Below the pieces are notes generated by a model that saw only the letters and a list, made by a program, of their open reading frames with translations, made no database searches and was not told the DNA's origin. The translations under genes were made by a program, and so were the position numbers. This document shows positions 1-55,980 of a stretch of DNA of 64,000 nt, one piece after another; position 1 is the first letter of the stretch, and each line of letters opens with the position of its first letter. This stretch comes from Fistulifera solaris (taxonomy: Eukaryota), in assembly GCA_030295235.1 (NCBI GenBank), contig AP026162.1, positions 124,001-188,000 of the forward strand, in the 5' to 3' direction.

Positions 1-3000
1 CATTTCTCGTTGAGCTACCGTTACCATTGACACACAAGCGAAGGCAATGGGGAAGAAGAAACTTTTCCACATATATAGCCAGTTGCGCAATACCTGGGAC
101 GGTACAGCTCGGAAGAGCTGTCACAATTCGTTGCCTGAAGGACTCTTGGGAGAAAGCGCTGTGGGACTGGCTGTCAACAGCGACCCCAGAATCCCTACTG
201 AGGTCTTCTAGAAACGTCGGGTTGACTTTGGCTTCATCTGACTTCAAAGGAAAGCCGAGAAACAATACAGCGACGCAAATCGTCGCTCTCAATTCAACGT
301 TTGACAAGAAAACAGATGGAATTCGATTGGTGGGGTCAACACCTTCAAACTTCCTAGCCTTTTCAATATCAGTATCCGGCTGTGAACCAGAAGATTGGGT
401 CTTCTTTTCTTCACCATTCAAGTCAACTTCCCGGCTCGTCATTCGTGACGCGCTCTGGACGTCTTCGGCACCATAGTAACGGAGATTTTCATTAATAAGC
501 AATTCTGCTGCGCAAGCTTCCCGAGCATGCACAAGTCCAGTTATAGCATAACGGGTTAAGTTCATAGGGACACCAATAGCGCGAAGATAGCGTGGAGCGT
601 CTGTTCCGTAGGCAACCTGGGATAGGTTGACACTAGCTGGACCGTAGCCATAGTCAGAACCGTCGTTTAAAGTACGGTGGGATGACCCAGATTGGTTGCT
701 ACCAATACCAATGCCTGAAAACTCGGGTGCGATTTCGGCGAGCTCAGGAGCAAACTCCGTGATGGCATCCTTATGAACACTAATCAAAGTCATTATATCT
801 GGCGATGTACTCCACAATGGATCAGATGAGGGCTCGTCCCACACTTGGGGATATACATTATCAGAGTAAGCCTCCTTTTCGACTGCATCAAGAATACAGC
901 GCAAACGAAAATCAAGTATTCTCGCATCAGGCATTGATAACAAGCGCTCTTCTTCTTCTTCATTGTCATTTTTGGAACCATCGACTTCGTCTGGCGCCAA
1001 GTCGCCGTCCGTCCTAGACGATTCTACCGGAACACGTCCTCGAGACAAAACCTTGTGCTCCTTGACAACCAGATCAGATTGCTCTTTCACAGCATCGTGG
1101 ACGCGCTTAATCAAGCGCGGGAGAGTTACAAAGTGGGAATCCGTCCCGTCAAACGCGAATGCATCTTCCACTTGTGTATCAGGCATTTCACTAATGACAG
1201 CTTCGGCTTCCGCCCCACCCTTACGTAGTAATGCGGCGTCCTCTTCGCGTTTTGACGCCGCTTTTGCCGCGGCAGCAACGGCAGCTTGTACTTCGAGCTC
1301 CGCTTTGATGCGAGCGGCTTCCAACGCATTATCAAAGACCCCTATGGCTGCAGAAGATGCTGTTCGGAAAATTTCTGCAGCGTCAATACTCGCCGCATCA
1401 GATTGGGAGACACAAGCAATTCGCTCCAAAAATGATAATTCAAAATCGTTGCGCATAGCTTCGTAATTTCCAAGACCATGGATAAACGAACCAACCAAAA
1501 GACTGATGTCGCAATCTCTGTCCCACCACGTAGCTGGTTCTTTGAGATTCAAACCCTTGTAGAAAGTCCCTACGATGAGCGAAAGCTCCTCAGTTGTAAC
1601 AAAGCGGGCTTTAAGGTCTGCATCGAGAGTTGCCAAATCTGACGAACTACATCCTCTTTTTCCGAGCGCTTCGTGACCTAGGGTACTTAAAATTGAGTCG
1701 AGACAGTCATTTATGAAGCAATTCAATCGCGAAAGTATCCCGATCCTCCTCAGAGAACGTAGAGCGGCGCCTTGGCGAAGCTCGGCAACAAAGGCTGGCT
1801 CCGTAATTATTAACGGTAACCTTAACTCCCGTTCAAGGTTTTCCACCTCCGATTGTGTTTGCAATGCTGTGCACACGGCATCGCAAACCCAATTCATCTC
1901 TTGAGCACTACTAAAGCCAAGCCACTCTCTCAGCAGCAAGCGTACATTTGAAGGAACATTTGTTCGCGAGTGAATGCTCAAAGCGACGGCGACCTGCAGG
2001 CCCAGTTGATATATAAACGCCCGCAGAAAGCTTTCAAGATCTTGAAGAGGAAGACCAGACAGGTTGGACTCGCTTCGCAATTTACAGAATCGAGCAAAAC
2101 CAAACCGTATCGTAGCGGCGATGGCGCGATTGCGCTGGGGAACTTCCCAAGCTTGTTTTAATCGTTCTAGCACAGGGTTCGCGTTCTCAGCTCTTTTCAA
2201 AGCCTGCAATCTCTCGTTCTTCTTTGATTTCTTAGGCTTTGGCTCAATAACCTCCTTGTCCTTGGCCTCCTTTGATATTCCAAGCGGAAGCCGCTTGATA
2301 GGCAAGGCGGGTTTGCTCAGCGAAACTTGTTGCTTTTCTGAGTTGATGATTTCCTGTTTCTTTTTGTCGCGTCGTTTCCTCTCCTTAATTTCTTGTTTCT
2401 TTATTTTCTGCTCAAGGCGGAGTCTCTCCTTTTCCTCCTTTTCCAATAATTTTTCTAGCGCTATCATATCCTTCTTTCGTTGTTCCGCTTCGGCTGTGTC
2501 TGCATGCGGATCGTAGACTTGGACCTGCTTTCTGCTTCTTTTGACTCCGTCGTCGAGCATCTGAGCGATATCCTCAGGGGTTTCTTCTTGTACCTCTAAG
2601 CCTACTGCTTTTGACCAAAACTCGGGGTCGTCGAGGTCGACGTCTTTCGTGCCATCATCAGTGTTGGCCACAAAACTTGCCTTGCTGAAACTTCCAAGTC
2701 CGCTACCCAAAGATGAAGTGGCAGAAGCTCCATACGTAACTTTACTCGAATGTTCAAGAAGCTGATCAATATCTGTTTCCATGAATCTTTCTGCTTCAGT
2801 GTCATCTTCATCTCGAAACACATCATATGCTCCTTTTTTCAGCAGCTCGTCAATCTGCTTCGCTTGTGCTTCCTTGTCACTTTTCTTTTCGATTTATCTT
2901 CGCCCTCTTCGCTTTGTTCTCTACTTTGGGACATAACTGCCCTTTCCAATCCAAGCTTTAAACTAGCGCTGTGAAACATGTGCATTTCGTACGTTTTCGC

Positions 3001-43657: not shown

Positions 43658-45572
43658 ATGCGCTTCTCTGCTATCGCCCTTGCCAGTGCTGCTCTCCTCT
43701 CCAGCGAAGCGTTTGCCTTTGTGCAACACCCTCGCGCGGTCTCCAAGGCGGCTATTCACTCCGAAGCCGCCTTTGTTTCCCCGTCCTTCTTACGCCAAGA
43801 TCTGGGAACCTCTCTTTTTGTCGGCCGTCGCTGAAGACGAAAAGACAGTTGTCAAGTCTGGTAAGGCTGAACTCACCAAGGATGAAGAAGAGATTCGTTC
43901 TCTCTTTTCTCTCTGGAACAATGCCCTTGCCACGGGAGATTCGCGTCTTGTTGCGGCGCGTTACGCCAAGGATGCCGTCCTTCTTCCGACCGTGTCCGAC
44001 ACTCCGCGCACGACGCCCGAATTAATCAAGGACTACTTTGATGCTTTCTTGAAGCGAAAGCCTCAGGGTGTCATTACCGAGGGATACATCAAGATTGGTG
44101 ATGGATTTGCCAAGGACTCGTAAGTTCACTCACTTGTGTGTGTCGTCGAAAGCCGTCGTCGGTCGTTTACGTGCGTCATGACATCTAACACTCGACTTCT
44201 TTCTTTCAATCAACGACAGTGGTATCTACGAATTCACAATGGGTGATAACAACAGCAAGGTAGAAGCCCGATACACCTTTGTCTACGTCAAGGAGAATGG
44301 AAAGTGGAAGATCTTGCACCACCACTCTTCGGTCATGCCGGAAGGCATCAGCGTCGCCCAGAAAATCACCGAGAACGAAGTTCGAGGACTCTTCAACTTG
44401 TGGAACGACGCCTTGGCGACTTTGGATTCGGATGCCGTGGCCAGCCGATACGCCAAGACGGCCGTCTTGCTCCCCACCGTGTCGGACACGCCCCGCACCA
44501 GCTACGAGCTCATCAAAGACTACTTTGACAACTTCCTCAAACGCAAGCCTCAGGGTGAAATTTTGGAGTCCTACGTCCAAATTGGTACCAACTGGGCCAA
44601 GGACAGTGGTATCTACGAATTCACCATGGGTGACACCGGCGACAAGGTGAAGGGTCGTTACTCCTTCATCTACGTCTACGAAGACGGTCAATGGAAGATT
44701 TCGCACCACCACTCCTCGGTCATGCCCGAAGGCATTACCGTCGGACAAAAGATTGAAAAGGAAGAGGTTCGCAAGTTGTTCAACTTGTGGAACGATGCTT
44801 TGGCCACCAAAGACTCCGCCAAGGTCGCGGCTCGTTACTCGAAAAACGCCGTCCTTCTTCCCACCGTCTCGGACAAGCCCCGCACCAGCAACGAATTGAT
44901 TGTTGACTACTTTAACAACTTTTTGAAGTTGGAGCCCCAGGGTGTCATTGATGAGGGTGAGATCATTGTTGGAACCAACTGGGCACAGGATGCTGGTATC
45001 TACACTTTCACTTTGGGAGCATCGGGCAAGAAGGTCCAGGCTCGTTACTCGTTCGTTTACGTCTACGAGGACGGTGAGTGGAAGATCTCTCATCACCATT
45101 CTTCGATGATGCCCGAGAAGGTGACTGTCGCTGAACCCATCACCAAGGAGCAAGTCCGTGACTTGTTCGGATTGTGGAACGACGCTCTCGCCACCAAGGA
45201 CCCCAAGAAGGTCGCTGCCCGCTACTCCAAGAACGCTGTTCTTCTTCCCACCGTGTCGGACACTCCTCGTACTTCTCCTGAATTGATTGAGGACTACTTT
45301 GAGGCCTTCTTGAAGAAGGAACCCCAGGGTGTCATTGACAGTGGAGATATCACCATCGGAGCCAACTGGGCCCAGGATGCTGGTATCTACACCTTCACCA
45401 TGGGCAATGACGGATCCAAGGTTCAGGCCCGATACTCTTTCGTTTATGTATTTGAAGATGGTGAATGGAAGATCTCTCACCACCACTCCTCGGTCATGCC
45501 GGAGGCTTTGCTAAACCCCCAAAGGCCGAAGCAAAGAAAGAGGAAGTTGCGGAAGAGAAGGTTGAAGCATAA
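43658..45572 (+). CDS. Iota-class carbonic anhydrase, LCIP63-like, 4 domains, plastid-type presequence
   Basis: Presequence MRFSAIALASAALLSSEAFAFV; intron 44120-44219; four domains each ending HHHSS(V/M)MPE; frameshifts near 43820 and 45520; strong codon bias. Confidence 0.92.
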
Positions 45573-45704
45573 TCAAGTTATATCATGCATATAATTTTGT
45601 CCTAGTATCATCGTGAAAATTTAGTGTTTATTTACTAGCTAGAGAAAAGCTAAGTGTATTTGTCTGGTCCGTACTAAATCTACCACATCCAGTTTGCCTC
45701 TGTC

Positions 45705-47351
45705 GATCAATTTCCTACGAGCTCTAGGTAGACGATCGAAGTGTTGCAACTTTGTACTGCTTCATGTTTCAGAATCAAATCAAGCTCGATTATTGTTTCA
45801 TGCAATGTATTAGCGATGTTGGGCAAAGTATTGTTGACATTGGCGTCGAAAAGATGCGAAAAATGGTGTGATCGAAATTGCGCAATATCCGGGTATCCCC
45901 TCTGTCGATAAATTTCCTTACCAGAGCTACGTGAAATTACGTAGGCATTCGAAGCGTTGCATCGTTCGTTCAATAAATGTTTTGTTACTCGCTCAAACGC
46001 GATTATTGCTTCTCGATACGATGCGAATGCGGTTTGCAAGAATACGCTGACTTTTCTGCACTGGAGAGCCATGAATTGGATGATGGAGAAAAAGAGATTA
46101 TCCGGGTACCCCTGCAGAGATAAATTTCCTACGGCGGCTACGTACTCTGCGTGTAGACATTGGAAGCGTTGTATCTTTTTACTTTTTCATGTTTCACTGT
46201 CAAATCAAAGTCGATTATTGTTTCCTGTCGTGCATAGGCGATGTTGGGCAAAGTATTGTTGACATTGGTGTCGAAAAGATGCGAAAAATGGTGTGATCGA
46301 AATTGCGCAATATCCGGGTATCCCCTCTGTCGATAAATTTCCTACGAGAGCTACCGGTAAGTGAAAATACGTAGACATTCGAAGCGTTGCATCATTCGTT
46401 CCATCAACGTTTTGTTTTCAAATCAATAGCGATTCTTGCTTCTCGATACGAAACAAATACGATGCGCAAGCAAACGTCGACATTTAGGCACTGTAGAGTC
46501 AAGAATGGGATGACGGCGAAAAACAAAATATCCGGGTACCCCTGCAGAGATAAATTTCCTACGGCTGCTACGTACTCTGCGCGTAGACACTGGAAGCGTT
46601 GTGTCTTTGTACTGTTTCATGTTTTAGTGTCGAATTAAGTTCGATAATTGTTTTATGCAATGTATTAGCGATGTTGGGCAAAGTATTGTTGACATTGGTG
46701 TCGAAAAGATGCGAAAAATGGTGTGATCGAAATTGCGCAAAATCCGGGTATCCCCTCTGTCGATAAATTTCCTTACCAGAGCTACGTGAAATTACGTAGA
46801 CATTCGAAGCGTTGCATCATTCGTTCCATCAACGTTTTGTTTTCGAATCGAAGGCGTTTATTGCTTCCGGATACGAAAAAAATACGATGCGCAAGCAAAC
46901 GTCGACATTTAGGCACTGTAGAGTCAAGAATGGGATGACGGCGAAAAACAAAATATCCGGGTACCCCTGCAGAGATAAATTTCCTACGGCGGCTACGTAC
47001 TCTGCGCGTAGACACTGGAAGCGTTGTATTTTTTTTGCTTTTTCATGTTTCACTGTCAAATCAAAGTCGATTATTGTTTCATGTCATGCATACGCGGTGT
47101 TGGGAAAAGTATTGTTGACATTGGTGTCGAAAAGATGCGAAAAATGGTGTGATCGAAATTGCGCAATATCCGGGTATCCCCTCTGTCGATAAATTTCCCT
47201 ACGAGAGCTACCGGTAAGTGAAAATACGTAGACATTCGAAGCGTTGCATCATTCGTTCCATCAACGTTTTGTTTTCAAATCAATGGCGATTTTTGCTTCC
47301 GGATACAATGTCAATACGGTGCACAAGAAGAAGTTGACTTTTCTGCACTGA
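45705..47351. repeat. Satellite with ~427-bp unit (two diverged ~213-bp halves) and an ~855-bp higher-order period
   Basis: ATCGAAATTGCGCAA.ATCCGGGTATCCCCTCTGTCGATAAATTTCC at 45871, 46296, 46726 and 47151; half-unit TATCCGGGTACCCCTGCAGAGATAAATTTCC at ~46099, 46529 and 46954. Confidence 0.95.
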
Positions 47352-47361
47352 ATGAATACAC

Positions 47362-48858
47362 ATGACAAGCACGAAGAAAACACACGTTTTATATGTCGAT
47401 CATCAAGGCCATCCGGCTCCCTTAACGGAATGTTTTCACGCCACTGCGTCGCGTCGGCTTTCTTCGACACTGCAGCGGTTTCCTCCGTCTTCCGTCACTT
47501 CCATCGATAGTGCTTACTGCCCGAACTGCTTGACTTCGCAAGATCTTGTTCAATATTGCAATCGCTGTCAGCGTTGTTCAGTTTGTGTGCACTCGATGCT
47601 GCAAATTATGGTCCGTGACAATCACTGTGTGTACGAGTGTGCGACGTGTCAATGGCGCAGCGCTATTTCGGTACCCGTGGTCGAAAATGCGAGTAAAGTA
47701 GAAATAGCACGAGCCGCAGAAGATTTATGCTTACAAGTAAAAGAAGCGAGACAAGTGGCGGATCACAAAGATTTATTTTCCGAACGAAAGATACGTCGTG
47801 GAATTCAGTCACTGCGTTCGTTTGATCGAGACAAGGATTGGTCGTTGGAGATTCTCGAAGCAACGCTGGAAACGAAACGAAAAGAAAAGAGTATTCGTCC
47901 GGAAGAATCAAAAGTGGAGAGTAGTTTATCGATTCAACGCCTCAATCTAGAAGACGATGAGGATAGGACACCGACAAAGTTCGAAGGTACGATAGGAGCA
48001 TGGCAGTGGCAGGCCTTGGTTCGTGGTGTACATCGCAATGATCTGCTACCCTTACCGGTTCCTTTACGTGCTCGTCGAAGTCGTCGGTGTCGTGCTGAAC
48101 TTGCCTCGGGTCGTCCCGGAATTTTGGTCAAACCGAAAGTCAATCCTTTGGAGGGCGATAGCAGTTTACGAACCGGGCACGGTCAATGGTGGAGAAAGGT
48201 ACGCCAGTCAACTCAAGGTGAATTATTCTTTCAACTATGCAATATCTCACATGGCTTTTCATTCATTTTTTAGGATTCGAGCGCCATTCACGTAATACCG
48301 CGTGTACGCGTGGTAAAGACGGTCTACCAGGAAGCATCCATCCATTTTCTATTGCAGGTTACGAACCCCACTTTAGGTCTAATTCGAATGCGCTGGGGCC
48401 CTAGTCCTTATTGTGGAGAAGAGGATTGGGATGGAAATGTGACGTTGTTGTTACAGCACCTATTGGTTGACACCATAACACAGGAGCATTGGAACGTACG
48501 ACTGCTCGAAGCGGAAGAGAGGCAATTCGAGACAACCAAGATCATAGAGCTCGCGTCAGCCGAAGATACCTTGCTGGAATTAAATCACAATAGTGGTAAT
48601 CAAGTTCCAGAAGCTATATCCCGTTGGAGTGGTACCAGCGAACAGACTCAGTGGATCGGTCAGCAGCAACAAGACGCCTGGCTGGAAGTTGTCGTTGAAA
48701 TCAAATCAACAATAAAGAACAATGAGCATTTGGCGATTCCACTTCGGATGCAAGTCGAGCTTGGCAATGGTTCATGGGAATCATCGCTGATCGAGCAGGA
48801 TACTTCTAAAGAAACAGATTGGGTCGATATTGACGTGGTATTGACGTGGGAGTCATGA
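47362..48858 (+). CDS. DCTN4: Dynactin subunit 4 (p62)-like
   Basis: SIDSAYCPNCL, CNRCQRCSVC, CATCQW, PLRARRSRRC, ILVKP and VTNPT. Intron 48199-48273 joins the ORFs in frame. Confidence 0.75.
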
Positions 48859-48916
48859 GAGGCTTACTGTGGAACACGATGTTGATGTTTATTTCATGCA
48901 TTGAATTTTAGTTTGA

Positions 48917-50860
48917 TTATTCAATTTCCTCCATCGAATGATCATCAGGCGCGTCAATATCGCTGTCAGTCTTCTTTTCTTCATCGTGAATTGTGTGCCC
49001 CTCCGCTTCGCAATCGTTTTCTTCCTGGTCATGGTAATTGCTCGAGACTGGACTAACTGATCCCAGGATGTGGACCTCCACGTGCTCGTTCTCTACTTTT
49101 GAGTTGGACGTGAGCGCAGAATGCGAACGCTTGCTTCCGGACCTTTGCAGTTCCATGGACAAAGTCATGGAGGCAATGACCTGATTTTGGGCCGTCACAT
49201 CATCCTCACCGCAATCGCCATGATCCCCTTGCAAAACTGTGGACAAGGCGTATTGTTCACTACGTCCTGGTCGTAATAAAGCCACAAGGCTTGATTGGTT
49301 TTTGTCTTCGTCGACATCTAGCCATACCTTAACCACAAAGGATGAAAGATAATTATCGTCGAACGCCCAACTATCATAATGCAAGACCAAGTTCGATAAT
49401 GTGAGAGCCAATCCCGGACTAACGTGGAATTTGTGAGGCTCGCCTTCTCTGAGAATAGCAGTTGCTACTCCGGGAGCATCATAATGATGGATCCAAGGTT
49501 GGAGACAGGAATTGGCCAATATTTCTGCTCTGTCATTGCACCGATGGTATCGATAACGTTTCATTTCAAAGTCCGTTAGAAGGCATTGGTCGAGTGATTT
49601 GGTAATATCGCCTTGTTTCAAACCGATTCCAATGAACACAATTTCTTGTCGACGGTCACCATACGCGCCTTCAAATTTGGCTCGAATGCGTTGAATGTCA
49701 GCTTCGTCATCGACGCCCCATTCATTTTTAGGCAAGGTAACATACCAAGGAGTCATTGGGTGGATCATAACAAGTCTGCCACTATGAGCCCATCCACCGA
49801 TGTTTGCGTCGCGGCCAGCAATCCAACAGAAGCCTTTGGAGCGAATGATATGACCATACGTGCCACACATGTGTGTGAATCGGTTATCAAGCTCGCTCAT
49901 AAAGCTTGGCTGGTGGATTCTGTCACTATTCCAATCATGTGAAAAGCACAGAATTTGATTTACCCACTGTGCCAGACGACCAGAATGAAATGGTTTGCGA
50001 GCGCGATACACGAACGATGTAATGCCATATTCTTCGGATTCACTGATCATAGTCTTGTCTGATTGCATGGAGACCAACCAGCCAGGACTTTCTTCTGCAT
50101 CCTTCATGGTGAACATTCTTGTGTTAAGAATGAGATTAAGGTCGACGACGCCAAACTTCGTAGGGATGACGGTGGCTTTGGGGTTAAGTGTTCGAATCAT
50201 TTCTTTTGTTGCTTGACAGTCTTGTTCGGATACCAGATCCGTTTTGTTTAGCAGTATGACATTGGCAAACTCCACTTGCTCAATCAACAAATCAGCAATA
50301 CTCTTTTCGCCTTCTTCATCTGAGTCTTCCCCGAGACCATCCTTGAACTCATCTTTGAATCGTTTGAGGGAAGAGAGATGACGAGGGAAATCATTCGTGT
50401 CAATAACCGTGACACAAGTATCCAGTCGGGCCACACTCCAAAGCATCTTGGATGGATCGTCGGCGAGTACAGTTGTTTCAGGGTCTGCACAAAATCCTTC
50501 CGCGACTTGTTGGGGTTCGGCAATGCCCGTTGATTCAATCAAGATGTAATCAAACGTACCGATTTCTCGGATACGATTGATTTCACGGATCAAATCCCCT
50601 CGCAAGGTACAGCAAATGCACCCATTGGACATGGAAATCAGCTCCCTCTTCGTTTGCACGAGGCCACTTTGTTCAACTACAGCAGCATCAATATTGAGTT
50701 CGGCCATATCATTCACAATCACGGCAACTTTCATGTTATGGTCGTGCCACTTGAGGATATACTGCAGTAGCGTAGATTTTCCGGACCCTAGAAATCCCGA
50801 GATGACTGTTACAGGAATACGGACATCCTTTGCTTCCACTTGTCTATTCGTTTCCATCAT
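48917..50860 (-). CDS. COG0523/CobW-family G3E GTPase metallochaperone with a C-terminal nucleoplasmin-like extension
   Basis: GFLGSGKST, GCICC (CxCC), IESTG, NKTD and CobW_C motifs RSKGFCW and GDRRQEIVFIG, followed by ~190 extra aa with an acidic tail. Confidence 0.9.
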   Translation of the reverse strand: MMETNRQVEAKDVRIPVTVISGFLGSGKSTLLQYILKWHDHNMKVAVIVNDMAELNIDAAVVEQSGLVQTKRELISMSNGCICCTLRGDLIREINRIREIGTFDYILIESTGIAEPQQVAEGFCADPETTVLADDPSKMLWSVARLDTCVTVIDTNDFPRHLSSLKRFKDEFKDGLGEDSDEEGEKSIADLLIEQVEFANVILLNKTDLVSEQDCQATKEMIRTLNPKATVIPTKFGVVDLNLILNTRMFTMKDAEESPGWLVSMQSDKTMISESEEYGITSFVYRARKPFHSGRLAQWVNQILCFSHDWNSDRIHQPSFMSELDNRFTHMCGTYGHIIRSKGFCWIAGRDANIGGWAHSGRLVMIHPMTPWYVTLPKNEWGVDDEADIQRIRAKFEGAYGDRRQEIVFIGIGLKQGDITKSLDQCLLTDFEMKRYRYHRCNDRAEILANSCLQPWIHHYDAPGVATAILREGEPHKFHVSPGLALTLSNLVLHYDSWAFDDNYLSSFVVKVWLDVDEDKNQSSLVALLRPGRSEQYALSTVLQGDHGDCGEDDVTAQNQVIASMTLSMELQRSGSKRSHSALTSNSKVENEHVEVHILGSVSPVSSNYHDQEENDCEAEGHTIHDEEKKTDSDIDAPDDHSMEEIE

Positions 50861-51068
50861 GATGTATTTTCTCTGGAGTGAAATTTTGTGAATGGGAGAG
50901 AAAGTGTTGATGGTTTTGCAAAAGAAAAACAAATGCAATAGGCCATACCTGATACCTTTCTTTGGTCTAACTTTTACCTTTTGACGTTAGGGGAAGTTGA
51001 TCTAGGCTGCTGTATATAAACTTCTGGCTAAAAGAAAAGGTCGGAAGCTTTAAAAGGGCTTTTTAGTT

Positions 51069-51195
51069 AAATCGTATTAGACCTTCCTATGCACCTTGTC
51101 CTCAAGCTGTTTCGTTTTCGGCCTTGCTCTATAATAAAATCGTATTAGACCTACCTATGGTACCTTGTCTCTCTAGCTGTTTCGTTTTTGGCCTA
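51069..51195. repeat. Local direct duplication of ~57 bp
   Basis: AAATCGTATTAGACCT.CCTATG..ACCTTGTC...AGCTGTTTCGTTTT.GGCCT occurs twice, about 69 bp apart. Confidence 0.85.
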
Positions 51196-51374
51196 ATTTT
51201 TTTTTCCAAAAGAGCAAACGTGAAAAAGGCCACAATCCAGCAACCTGCAAGGCCATAACGCCATCCAAGATTCGTATAGGTTAGTCCCACTCGAGATTTG
51301 GCGACAAGCAAGAAGCAAGTGCCAAGTGCCAAGTCGAAGTTGCGATCCGGTATTTAGGCGCAAAGATCCATGGG

Positions 51375-51599: not shown

Positions 51600-52969
51600 A
51601 TGTTCACCGCTCGTGCTGCCAAATCTCTTCCTGTGTTGCGACAGATTCAGTCCAAGCAGCTTTACGCCGCTGGATCTAACTTGCGACCCTTTTTCAGCTT
51701 CTCTGGCGGTGACAAGGGACCGAAAGACGACGAAGTCCGAGCTCTTTTCTCCGTCTGGAACAACGCTCTCGCTACAGGAGACTCCGCTACCGTTGCTTCC
51801 TGCTATGCCAAAGATGCCGTCCTTCTTCCTACCGTGTCGGATACTCCTCGTACTTCTCCGGCTTTGATCAAGGACTACTTTGATGCCTTCTTGAAGCGAA
51901 AGCCTCAGGGTGTCATTACCGACGGATACATCCGATCGGGAGAAGGATTCGCCAAGGACTCGTAAGTACTTTATAAGTAGCTCATGTAAGAGCGAAAAAT
52001 CTGTCATACTCACACGCTTCTGTTTCTCTTTCGTTCAGTGGTATCTACGAATTCACCATGGGTGACACCGGCGACAAGGTTAAGGCCCGTTACAGTTTCG
52101 TGTACGTCAAAGAGGATGGAAAGTGGAAGATCTTGCACCACCACTCCTCTGTCATGCCCGAAGGTATTACTATCGGAAAGAAGATTGAAAAGGACGAAGT
52201 TCGCAGCTTGTTCAACTTGTGGAACGACGCTCTTGCCTCGGGAGACTCGGCCAAGGTGGCCGCTCGCTACTCAAAGAACGCCGTCCTTCTCCCCACTGTC
52301 TCCGACACACCCCGCAACAACAACGATTTGATCGTTGACTACTTCAACAACTTCTTGAAGTTGAAGCCCCAGGGTGTCATCGATAGTGGCGACATCCTCA
52401 TCGGAACCAACTGGGCCCAAGATGCTGGTATCTACACCTTCACTTTGGGTGCGAACGGCAAGAAGGTCCAAGCTCGTTACTCTTTCGTCTACGTTTACGA
52501 GGACGGCGAGTGGAAGATCTCCCACCACCATTCTTCTATGATGCCTGAAAAGATCGTCGCACCTGAACCCGTCACCAAGGAACAAGTGCGCAGCTTCTTC
52601 AACTTGTGGAACGATGCCCTAGCCACTCTTGACCCCAAGAAGGTCGCGGCTCGTTACGCAAAGGATGCTGTCCTTCTTCCTACCGTGTCGGACATCCCCC
52701 GCACTTCTCCTGATTTGATCGAGAACTACTTCGAGGCTTTCTTGCAAAAGAAGCCCCAAGGTGTCATTGACAGTGGTAATGTCAAGATCGGAGCCAACTG
52801 GGCGCAAGATGCTGGTATCTACACTTTCACCATGGGCAACGATGGATCTAAGGTGCAAGGTCGATATTCCTTCATCTACGTATTCGAGGATGGTGAGTGG
52901 AAGATCTCTCACCACCACTCCTCGGTCATGCCGGAGGCTTTCTTGAACCCCAAGGCCCCTGCTCAGTAA
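51600..52969 (+). CDS. Iota-class carbonic anhydrase, 3 domains, mitochondrial-like presequence
   Basis: N-terminus MFTARAAKSLPVLRQIQSKQLYAAGSNLRPFFSFSG; intron 51962-52038 at the same codon as in the 43658 gene; three HHHSS domains; no frameshift. Confidence 0.92.
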
Positions 52970-53194: not shown

Positions 53195-55980
53195 TCAAGG
53201 TGTCCATGCTAGTGCAACATCGTAGACTTTCTGATAATCGTCCGCGTATTCCACATGCAATCCTTCCTTCAAGTATTCGGGAATTTCGTCGAAGTCGCGC
53301 TGGTTAGCTTGTGGCAATATCACACAAGTTATTCCGGCTCGACGAGCCGCCATAATTTTTCACGGATACCTCCCACTGGGAGCACCTTTCCTGTGAGACT
53401 GATCTCCCCAGTCATGGCCAAATCATTTCGAACTGGTTTACCCGTTGCCAGCGACAGCAACGATGTGACCATTGTAATCCCAGCCGATGGACCATCTTTG
53501 GGAGTTGCTCCTTCCGGTACATGCAAATGGATATCCGCCGTATCGAAATAAGAATTTGCCGGATCAATTTCGTGCAGCCTTGCACGCGCCACAGTGTAAG
53601 CTATGTCGGCACTTTCTTTCATAACGTCTCCGAGTTGTCCGGTTACCTTAACGTGACCGCCTCCTCGTGGCTTTCCTTCGGCGTCAGGCGCACGTTGAAT
53701 GCCCTGCGTCTCAATATACAAAGCTGATCCACCCATTGACGTGTATGCAAGACCCATCACGATACCATTCGGCAAAGGTCCGTCTTGATACAGACGATCG
53801 CTTGTGAAGATTTGTTTGCCGACGTAATCGACCAGATTGCTCTCATCAATCGTCCATGAATCTGACTTTCGCTTTGACTTTTCCCGTAGTACAGCCCCCT
53901 CTTGCTCAGCAACAATCTGCAAAGCCAGTTTGCGAGTAATTCGGTCAATATACTTGGCAAGATTACGAACACCAGCTTCACGGGCATACCACCGAACCAA
54001 ACTCTGAATTGCTTCACGGGAAATGGCAACACCCTCGGGAATTCCTGGTGCATGAACGTATTTTTCAAGTGGCGTCGTTTTGATATTTGCTCCGTCCGGA
54101 TCAGAATCGTCCATTTTCTTCTCTTCCGAATGGAGTTCGTCAATAGTCTCGCTTTCCTTTTCTACCATTAAGCCGCTCTCTTTGAATGATTTGGGGACCA
54201 AGTAGTTTTCAGCGATCGTCACCTTTTCAGGAAAGTCGTATCCAGGCAGCCGAATAATTTCCATACGATCGAGCAGAGGTCCAGGAATGCGATCGAGCTC
54301 ATTGGCTGTACAAAGAAAAAGAACCTGACTGATATCCACTGGAACGTCTAAGAAGTGATCCCTGAAAGTAGAATTTTGGCTCGGATCCAATACTTCTAAC
54401 AAAGCACTGGCTGGATCACCGCGAAATCCCGACCCAAGCTTATCAATTTCATCAATGAGAATCACAGGATTACTAGTTCCGACTGTTTTCAAACTTTGAA
54501 TGACTTTTCCGGGCATGGCGCCGATGTATGTTCTTCAAGGAACGTTAGAGACAATAAAAAGATGACAGGTAGATATAGAAACGCACCTTCGGTGACCTTT
54601 GATCTCGCTCACATCACTCAAACCACCCACACTGAAGCGGTAAAACTCCCGGTTGAGAGCTTGCGCGATCGACTTTCCAATACTGGTTTTACCGGTGCCC
54701 GGAGGCCCCGCCAAACACAAGATTTTGCCTTCGACGGTCCCTTTCAGCTTTCCAATGGCAATGAATTGTAAGATAGCATCCTTGACATCTTCCAATCCGT
54801 AGTGATCTTGGTCTAGTACGCGTCTCGCTTTGGCGAGATCAAAATTCTCTTCGCTCATGACGCCCCACGGAACTCCCAACAACCAATCCAAATAACTGCG
54901 CGTGACCTGATACTCGGGTGAATTCTTTTCGAGCGTACTGAATTTTTCCATTTCTGCTTGAATGACATCGTTAACTTCCTTGGGAACTTTATCACCATAT
55001 TCTTCCAACTTCTTTTGATACTTTTCAATCAAAGCATCCTTATCATCCCGTTCCATCCCCAATTCCTTCTTGATGGACTTGAGTTGTTCCATCAAAAAGT
55101 ATTTTCGCTGCGTCTCGGTCATTTTCTCTTCTACTTTTTGATTGATTTCTTTTTGTAACTGACTGACGGACAATTCCCGATTGAGCAAGACCAACGCCAA
55201 ATGCAAGCGCTGTTCCGGATCGCGTTCCGCCAAGACGGCCTGCAAATCCGCGGACGCCCCGCCACTGGCACTGATGCTGGCCGCAAAGTCCGCCAATTTG
55301 AACGGATCATTCGCATCAAAGCGCATGGGAAACAAATTGAGTGATTCACGAAAGAGTGGATTCATTTGTGCAATTTGTCGAATGGTGCTGATGATTTCGT
55401 TCGATAAAGCCCGGATGGTGATATCTTGATCGGGTTGGGGTGCATATTCAAGTCGGGGCCAGTGTTTGACATTGACACGGAGGGGAGGACCCAATTCATC
55501 AATCGAAAGCAAATCGACACGACGATGCGCCAGAAGAGTCAAGGTGGCGGTCGTTTCTTCTTCGACTTTGTGAAAGCGTTGTATTTCGGCGAGAGTTCCA
55601 GTTTCGTACAACTCGAGAGGATCGGTTATGATTTCGGGTACTTCGACTACAGTTCCGTGTCCTTCGGTTGGTCTGCGTAGAAAGCAGGAAAGAAAAGCTC
55701 GATCTTGATTCCACAGTTCTTCCATGGCTTGAATGGTCGGCGGATCCGTCAATGTAATGGAAGTGATGAGACCGGGAAAGATGGGGCGTGTTTGCAGCGG
55801 TAGACCCAGTGTATGCGGCATGCGAGGTGCTGCTTCACCAAAGGGGATTTTCTCCGGTACAACAACGACTTTGTTGTCGTCGGAGGAGGAAGACGAGGAA
55901 GAAGAGAACCATCGAGGAAGAGGCGCTACACGAGGCCGTCGACGAGCGGATCGCACCGCCATGAATGAGGCCGCTATCAT
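53195..55980 (-). CDS. LONP1: Mitochondrial Lon protease
   Basis: Arg/Ser presequence, [21 protein letters not shown] across intron 54533-54586, IDEIDK, catalytic PKDGPSAG and [10 protein letters not shown]. One 1-bp frameshift near 53357. Confidence 0.93.

Follow-up and report, generated by a model that had tools for sequence, protein, structure and literature searches.

A COG0523 GTPase joined to a predicted C-terminal nucleoplasmin-like domain and acidic tail in Fistulifera solaris and other stramenopiles

A minus-strand open reading frame (ORF) at 48917..50860 of a 64,000-nucleotide stretch of Fistulifera solaris DNA (contig AP026162.1, positions 124,001 to 188,000; this whole stretch is called the window, and all coordinates are positions within it) encodes a protein in which a COG0523 GTPase is followed by a predicted nucleoplasmin-like (NPL) β-sandwich and an acidic tail. 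The original prediction, made from the sequence alone, had proposed a COG0523 GTPase fused to an NPL-like domain, drawing on positions 48917-49500, which are the 3' end of this ORF. That proposal is borne out by the predicted fold, by profile homology detected through relatives, by conservation of the extension in 71 of 120 relatives and by ORFs from the MMETSP collection. We regard homology to NPL domains and a genuine fusion as nearly certain. We favor, with rather modest confidence, a wider reading in which the protein belongs to a stramenopile subfamily of ZigA/ZNG-like COG0523 proteins that acquired a true C-terminal NPL domain with an acidic tail, and in which this addition would act through ring assembly and contact with chromatin.

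A COG0523 GTPase with a long extension on one uninterrupted frame

The ORF list and its translation give a single 647-codon frame without interruption, with its stop codon at 48917-48919. The ORF tool extends this frame to a TTG at 50938 (48917-50938), which is an artefact of translation table 11; we take the ATG at 50860 as the start of a 647-amino acid (aa) protein, and close relatives such as P0002 likewise begin with MM.T at the position of this ATG. The nearest relatives of the protein are 76–83% identical to it, and three close relatives share its length and layout, with extensions that are 54–62% identical. Because of this identity, and because the extension is detected by profile in 71 of 120 relatives, the region beyond CobW_C is not chance ORF sequence.

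A Pfam scan of the whole protein matched the cobW G3E GTPase domain (PF02492) to residues 16-232 (50165..50815, minus strand, as for all features of this protein) with an E-value of 1.7e-49, and CobW_C (PF07683) to residues 280-427 (49580..50023) with an E-value of 1.9e-16. The CobW_C domain carries insertions, 148 residues being aligned to 94 model positions. Reading of the sequence placed a P-loop, GFLGSGKS, at residues 22-29, the putative metal-binding motif CxCC (CICC) at residues 81-84 (50609..50620), ESTG at residues 109-112 and NKTD at residues 205-208. Family features were counted in 65 full-length relatives. None of the GTPase motif columns varies among these 65, except for T111 of ESTG, which is retained in 64 and exchanged for serine in one; C81, C83 and C84 of CxCC are invariant in all 65. 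In COG0523 proteins, the CxCC motif has a metal-binding role (PMC9010474; statements cited to this source and to PMC4414354, PMC12891040 and PMC2770081 follow excerpts of those texts).

The top NCBIfam model was ZigA, at 414 bits (E 5e-124), with CobW next at 109 bits; a score of 414 bits lies below the 600-bit cut-off for membership of the ZigA equivalog. The best solved match was E. coli YjiA, both by sequence (E 1.7e-19) and by fold (E 3.8e-16, full-length model), and a sequence search of the whole protein against solved structures returned only YjiA and UreG, plus weak β-lactamase noise at residues 443-483. Based on the motifs, the top-ranking ZigA model and YjiA as the best solved relative, we read the GTPase as a probable ZigA/ZNG-like COG0523 protein that is not ZigA itself. 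The conservation of the motifs suggests that the protein would hydrolyze GTP and would bind Zn or Co in a GTP-dependent manner; Zn as the cognate metal is an even call. We also observed that the GTPase/CobW_C part of the full-length model matches Tetrahymena Shulin (6zyx/6zyw) with an E-value of about 6e-8, and that weak Pfam DAAF9_2 matches fall at residues 199-253. We read these as reflecting a COG0523-like module in Shulin, a dynein regulator.

The extension has a predicted nucleoplasmin-like fold

Since CobW_C ends at residue 427 and no Pfam family falls on residues 428-647, the extension measures about 220 residues, not the roughly 190 first estimated. The peptide pieces from which the original prediction argued are all present, in the order it gave. 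We modeled the extension twice with AlphaFold2 (AF2). The first model covers residues 455-647, was built from a 4-sequence alignment, and has a mean predicted local distance difference test (pLDDT) score of 66.9; the second covers the whole protein, was built from 65 sequences, and has a mean pLDDT of 78.8 and a predicted TM-score (pTM) of 0.74. Both contain an eight-stranded β-sandwich at residues 463-605 (49046..49474). Block-mean pLDDT in the first model is 85-91 across most of the strand-rich stretches, with low values in the loops and tail and values below 50 in part of the loop at residues 545-564. The blocks of the NPL part at residues 451-550 of the second model have means of 80-95, and its tail, residues 616-647, is below 50. 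The linker between CobW_C and the sandwich (residues 428-462, 49475..49579), delimited from the full-length model and family alignments, is modeled as two short helices and one extra strand, has a family motif around PPW, and is net negative in 61 of the 65 relatives.

Structure prediction followed by Foldseek, the check that the original prediction had set for itself, found a nucleoplasmin-like β-sandwich. In a Foldseek search of the PDB with the first model, nucleoplasmin-fold cores held the best ranks: AtHDT2 matched with an E-value of 2.1e-5 and AtHDT1 with a TMt of 0.88 and a root-mean-square deviation (rmsd) of 1.8 Å, and AtFKBP43, Drosophila NLP, AtHDT3/4, AtFKBP53, NPM1, PfNPM and FKBP39 were also among the top matches. 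Birnavirus VP2 capsid and PHM chains appeared from rank 20 downward. With the full-length model, Foldseek matched YjiA to the N-terminal part and HDT1 to the C-terminal part, the latter again with a TMt of 0.88 and an rmsd of 1.8 Å.

We also compared the model with 48,161 representative chains using VIA-align, an aligner independent of Foldseek. Ranks 1-9 were all nucleoplasmin folds, with Z-scores from 11.9 to 7.9, and the first other fold had a Z-score of 7.2. AtHDT1 ranked first (Z 11.9), with an rmsd of 1.6 Å over 94 of 94 residues (model range 9..151), followed by Drosophila NLP (10.3), PfNPM (10.2), two entries for NPM1 (9.7 and 9.3), Npm2 (9.1), FKBP39 (8.9), FKBP53 (8.5) and Xenopus NPM2 (7.9); the matches to nucleoplasmins at Z 9.1-10.3 are 1nlq, 8zs0, 4n8m, 8as5 and 3t30. 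Sequence identity to solved NPL cores is just 12–18%. A structure search of the ESM Atlas, which we treat as a lead only, gave NPL-FKBP rows (TM 0.50) mixed with unrelated sandwiches (TM 0.48-0.56), and a feature search of the same resource gave CobW_C-type clusters only, at 0.76, below the trusted level of the tool.

We detected relatives of the extension at the sequence level with a profile built from four close relatives and searched against 1.84 billion representatives. This profile matched 33 proteins at E ≤ 1e-3, of which we judged 21 to be true relatives (E 1e-16 to 1e-4). CobW_C is also present in 15 of these 21, and the Pfam NPL family (PF17800) matches nine at E ≤ 0.01. Four exceed the PF17800 cut-off, with 36.6, 30.5, 29.7 and 25.4 bits, one of the four being a 705-aa protein with cobW, CobW_C and NPL. 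NPL likewise matches 10 of 15 C-terminal pieces at E ≤ 1, and 25 of the 65 full-length relatives at E ≤ 0.01, the best at 9.1e-9. A word-index search with the NPL part of P0027 returned only P0027 itself.

The remaining 12 of the 33 profile matches were rejected as spurious. They are long proteins with 4-9 short matched stretches, several of them with nSTAND NTPase domains, and none was recovered by a 15-sequence profile at E ≤ 1e-3. In P0007, P0010, P0015, P0029, P0032-P0034 and P0036, profile positions of about 46-86 are matched in 5-9 stretches each; since such matches are lost with the 15-sequence profile, they are probably compositional or repeat artefacts.

The extension could in principle be a generic β-sandwich or jelly-roll that resembles the nucleoplasmin fold without homology to it. 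Unrelated CUB, PHM, GOLD and viral capsid domains do reach Z-scores of 6-7, the ESM Atlas rows do not separate NPL domains from other sandwiches, and profile searches gave no direct hidden Markov model match to NPL sequences in the PDB. Nevertheless, a run of nine nucleoplasmin folds at the head of 48,161 chains, the full-length superposition on AtHDT1 and the gap down to a Z-score of 7.2, together with the relatives that pass the PF17800 cut-off and the 25 of 65 matched at E ≤ 0.01, make a resemblance without homology very improbable.

The fusion is shared by diatoms and an oomycete

To describe the spread of the fusion we took the 120 best matches to residues 1-430 and called the extension by local profile. 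It is present in 71, across most of the domain in 65 and partly in six, and absent in 49; proteins that have the extension reach a median of 642 residues, as compared with 481 for those that lack it. The original prediction had proposed a search for the fusion in other stramenopiles, and the long form is indeed found in the diatoms Ditylum brightwellii, Pseudo-nitzschia multistriata, Seminavis robusta, Cylindrotheca fusiformis, C. closterium and Amphora coffeaeformis, and also in the oomycete Aphanomyces astaci.

In a FastTree tree of the GTPase part, with a midpoint root and Shimodaira-Hasegawa-like support only, presence of the extension requires eight changes, as compared with a mean of 38.2 for shuffled labels, and none of 500 shuffles was as low. 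Of the 49 proteins without the extension, 41 (436-619 aa) form one sister clade with a support of 97; this clade could hold the Zn-responsive diatom protein ZCRP-A. The other eight short proteins are nested in long-form clades, and seven of these, with 379-514 residues, may be truncated gene models. By these comparisons, the fusion is an old architecture that diatoms conserve and at least one oomycete shares.

Two neighboring genes merged by an error of assembly or gene calling, or an extension that lies outside the mature mRNA, would give a similar appearance, and we consider this the least probable of the alternatives. The frame is open across the junction between GTPase and extension, and a 2,461-base contig from run X1 equals 48744-51204 with 0 differences, although it possibly has the same source as the window. 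We read run X1 as DNA because every bin is covered, intergenic DNA included. Four 151-base contigs from runs X2 and X3 lie inside 49410-49778 with 0-1 differences; the type of these runs is a guess, and we base no conclusion about transcription on them. The same order of parts is found on one ORF in the 71 relatives, which come from many assemblies. These include the MMETSP records P0041 and P0068, labeled as complete transcripts, in which both GTPase and extension are present. MMETSP is a transcriptome project (PMC9010474), and both parts are therefore on one mRNA in these relatives.

Conserved residues, charged loops and predicted self-association

Within the NPL part, several residues are near-invariant among the 65 relatives: W513 is conserved in 64, R530 in 63, Q536, L493 and L525 in 62 each, and D515, E570 and H597 in 59 each. 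Charge is also conserved outside the strands. The loop at residues 496-507 is net negative in 58 of 65, and the internal acidic loop between strands 6 and 7 (residues 545-564, 49169..49228), defined by its low pLDDT and its charge in relatives, is net negative in 59 of 65. By contrast, the Ser/Lys/Arg-containing loop that precedes the last β-strand (residues 574-593, 49082..49141), defined by charge in relatives, is net positive in 36 of 65. This loop contains the KRS patch (residues 577-579, in GSKRSHS) that had originally been placed after the acidic tail.

The tail itself (residues 606-647, 48920..49045), predicted to be disordered and delimited by composition, pLDDT and comparison with relatives, is acidic as claimed: the last 41 residues of the protein hold 17 D/E and 2 K/R, along with 4 His and 1 Cys, and a small basic spot, EEKK, lies inside it. 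Tails are net negative in 64 of 65 relatives, with a median charge of -9 and a median length of 28; their His content has a median of 2 and a maximum of 10, and 44 of the 65 tails contain Cys. The basic motif K[KR]x[KR] is found in the N-terminal extension of 28 of 65 relatives and in the basic loop of 10 of 65, though not in the loop of this protein. Overall, 43 of 65 relatives have it in the N-terminus, the basic loop or the tail, a count made without a control.

We modeled self-association of the NPL part with ESMFold2, using four copies of residues 455-609 and leaving the family alignment unused; more than two copies is outside the calibration of the tool. Three runs gave scores of 0.68, 0.16 and 0.63 (median 0.63), as compared with 0.01 for the best control, and the tool returned the verdict 'supports binding'. 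When the tool was calibrated, 21 of 30 proteins with structures solved as pairs of one chain attained this mark, as compared with 0 of 23 that were solved as single chains. The runs share at least 2% of contacts, with a partner pLDDT of at least 60, and the confident predicted interface includes D515, L525, Q536, H597 and G600. Hence the oligomeric state that the original prediction had suggested finds its support in silico, and the contacts predicted between copies of the NPL part run through the residues that are most conserved in it. We consider oligomerization through the NPL part likely.

A proposed role and its main rival

We propose that the NPL module would drive the protein to form a ring, which by analogy with solved NPL cores would most likely be pentameric, and that several GTPase modules would in this way come together on the same face. 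Basic partners, whether histones or other nuclear or nucleolar proteins, would be bound by the acidic loops and tail, and GTP-dependent transfer of Zn (or Co) would thereby be placed at chromatin-associated clients under metal scarcity. Nuclear location, histone binding and metal specificity are here suggested by analogy and motif, and for a nuclear or chromatin-linked role taken alone the scales tip slightly to the negative side. A bolder version is quite unlikely, namely a chromatin factor gated by GTP and metal, built as a pentameric ring with acidic arms of the histone-chaperone type and five Zn/Co-transferase modules. If it were true, metal would be loaded onto or stripped from histones or histone-bound zinc proteins, chromatin state would be coupled directly to trace-metal supply in stramenopiles, and the protein would add a fourth architecture to those of NPL proteins, none of the others having an enzyme as N-terminal partner. 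It would also be the first metallochaperone to act on chromatin.

Several observations weigh against the proposal of an NPL ring that brings metal transfer to chromatin. The Pfam scan of the whole protein (E ≤ 10) listed neither NPL nor any other family on residues 428-647, and PF17800 scored 14.3 bits on residues 455-647 (E 0.068), below its cut-off of 23.4 bits; the Pfam search put forward in the original prediction thus fell short for this protein and succeeded in four relatives. We regard the missed cut-off as a matter of detection threshold, not as a structural feature. A 15-sequence profile of the extension, searched against PDB sequences, matched no NPL chain, its sole match being FGFR3 at an E-value of 0.72. 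The NPL domain is C-terminal here, whereas it is always N-terminal in the excerpted account of NPL proteins (PMC4414354), although we take position as a matter of layout that does not define the domain. The tail is short, at about 41 residues, as compared with more than 100 charged residues after canonical NPL domains (PMC4414354), and its His and Cys content would equally suit metal binding. A count of the K[KR]x[KR] motif found none in the N-terminus, basic loop or tail of this protein. ZCRP-A, the only localized diatom COG0523 protein in the excerpted source, is found near the endoplasmic reticulum (ER) and chloroplast, not in the nucleus (PMC9010474). As for assembly, one of the three self-association runs reached only 0.16, the pass may stem from solved NPL pentamers that the model had memorized, and the limit of four copies put the pentamer itself outside the test; the geometry of a ring with five large GTPase modules is hypothetical.

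The main rival is a cytosolic ring scaffold, in which the NPL domain multimerizes a metallochaperone with no link to chromatin, and the acidic His/Cys loops and tail form a low-affinity metal reservoir or sensor. His-rich tails in other G3E-system chaperones serve in such a capacity. The His and Cys counts of the tails, the predicted self-association, the lack of a simple motif resembling a nuclear localization signal in this protein and the extranuclear position of ZCRP-A would all suit a scaffold, as would the low-affinity binding of Cu, Co, Zn, Cd and Mg in the pore of the FKBP39 NPL domain (PMC4414354). By contrast, the characterized NPL proteins in the excerpted account are all chromatin-associated or histone-binding (PMC4414354), 43 of 65 relatives do have a K[KR]x[KR] motif on the uncontrolled count given above, and the loops and tail conserve net acidic charge rather than the positions of His or Cys. 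On balance we consider a scaffold without a chromatin link unlikely, and prefer the reading in which the NPL ring would serve chromatin-associated clients.

Neighboring genes

A Pfam scan of the genes that flank the GTPase-NPL gene gave no functional hint. The convergent neighbor is called on the plus strand as two ORFs, 47362-48273 and 48310-48858, which probably belong to a single gene that is split by an intron or a frame change; the region 47362-48858 has no Pfam match and several CxxC pairs, and its end lies about 58 bp from the GTPase stop codon. Within this gene, at 47388-47697 and 48457-48689, run X1 gave pairs of equal-length contigs, one identical to the window and one with 15-24 differences, which look like two alleles or haplotypes.

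Further out, the locus is flanked by two paralogous plus-strand genes, 44239-45591 and 52058-52966, that consist of repeated CaMKII association-domain/SnoaL-like (NTF2-fold) modules, with four matched stretches in the first and three in the second. A 425-bp tandem repeat of 3.7 copies with 87% matches occupies 45738-47306, where the short ORFs are derived from the repeat. The depth of X1 contigs is 1313 in the bin 47200-47366, at the right edge of the repeat, as compared with about 18-50 elsewhere, and because of this very high depth the repeat unit is probably multi-copy in the genome. On the minus strand, 53329-54516 and 54535-55980 are two adjacent ORFs of a Lon protease (AAA, Lon_lid and Lon_C); the domain scan covered the downstream ORF only.

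Comparison with known systems

COG0523 proteins are the least understood metallochaperones, with very few known clients. For diatoms, Zn and Co are chronically scarce, and their COG0523 sets are expanded; Thalassiosira pseudonana is reported to have seven COG0523 genes (PMC2770081). Some of the best indications of where COG0523 proteins act come from the domains added to them. The NPL domain has so far been reported, in the excerpted account, only in histone chaperones and chromatin proteins (PMC4414354), and its presence on a Zn-type GTPase points to the nucleus or, failing that, to a multivalent chaperone in the shape of a ring. The GTPase-NPL family offers a way to test how chromatin is informed of trace-metal status, and a case for what an NPL ring adds apart from histone binding. 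We found no description of the fusion in full-text literature searches that combined COG0523, CobW or metallochaperone with nucleoplasmin(-like) or PF17800, and the combination has apparently never been described in print. The original prediction's view that the architecture is undescribed holds for the literature, although databases do contain such proteins under generic names, with an automatic PF17800 label on nine of the 120 best relatives. We count the fusion as the fourth layout for NPL domains and as a new addition to COG0523 proteins, not as a new category.

The excerpted account describes NPL proteins as pentamers that associate with chromatin and have acidic tails, and it distinguishes three layouts, NPL-FKBP, HD-tuin and nucleoplasmin, with a charged stretch of more than 100 residues behind the NPL domain; all four core histones are recovered in FKBP39 pull-downs, HD-tuins have a zinc finger, and neither CobW nor a GTPase is mentioned (PMC4414354). 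The protein resembles PF17800 proteins (AtHDT1-4, AtFKBP43/53, Drosophila FKBP39 and yeast Fpr3/4) in its predicted β-sandwich, for which HDT1 is the best match, in the acidic stretches after the core and in its predicted self-association; PF17800 proteins are also linked to metal, in the case of FKBP39 and the HD-tuins. The conserved polar pore residues of FKBP39 are His24, Ser26 and Asp62; in the GTPase-NPL family, the polar positions that hardly vary are D515, R530, Q536 and H597, several of which fall in the predicted interface. The protein differs from PF17800 proteins in that its NPL domain stands behind a 430-residue enzyme module, the partner being a G3E GTPase and not a prolyl isomerase or zinc finger, as well as in its shorter tail and its low identity to solved cores. 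With nucleoplasmin and nucleophosmin (Npm2, NPM1, Drosophila NLP and PfNPM) it shares the predicted fold and an acidic tail after the core, whereas those proteins lack an enzymatic partner domain. PF03066, which we take to be the accession of the nucleoplasmin family, was not listed in our Pfam scans at the E limits used, and PF17800 is the family reported.

Like the COG0523 Zn metallochaperones ZigA, YjiA and ZNG1/ZNG2, the protein has cobW and CobW_C domains with P-loop, CxCC, ESTG and NKxD motifs; unlike them, it has the added NPL domain and acidic tail. ZNG1-type proteins have an N-terminal client-binding segment. Only 13 residues precede the first strand here, which would leave no room for such a segment. 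ZCRP-A is likewise a diatom COG0523 protein with a CxCC motif; it is induced at low Zn or Co (PMC9010474) and has been placed in a ZNG-related algal clade (PMC10642216). The excerpted description of ZCRP-A mentions no NPL domain (PMC9010474). ZCRP-A may be of the long or the short form.

A parallel in layout is CBP1/ZNG3 of Chlamydomonas, a COG0523 GTPase with an added C-terminal interaction module. CBP1 is a CobW+CobW_C+WW protein that has been shown to be nuclear, and its extra C-terminal domain binds the regulator CCM1/CIA5 (PMC12891040). By analogy, the extension of our protein might dock on a specific Zn-dependent transcription regulator and so adjust gene expression to the supply of metal or CO2, with no general action on histones, and the intact GTPase and CxCC motifs are consistent with such a nuclear co-regulator. 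However, the added domain is an NPL domain and not a WW domain, COG0523 proteins with a WW domain occur only in certain green algae according to the excerpted source (PMC12891040), and this protein has no known or predicted partner; we consider a co-regulator of this kind improbable, and retain the reading of an NPL ring that would serve chromatin-associated clients. Since the added module is a WW domain in some green algae and an NPL domain in stramenopiles, the two C-terminal additions to a COG0523 GTPase are independent inventions.

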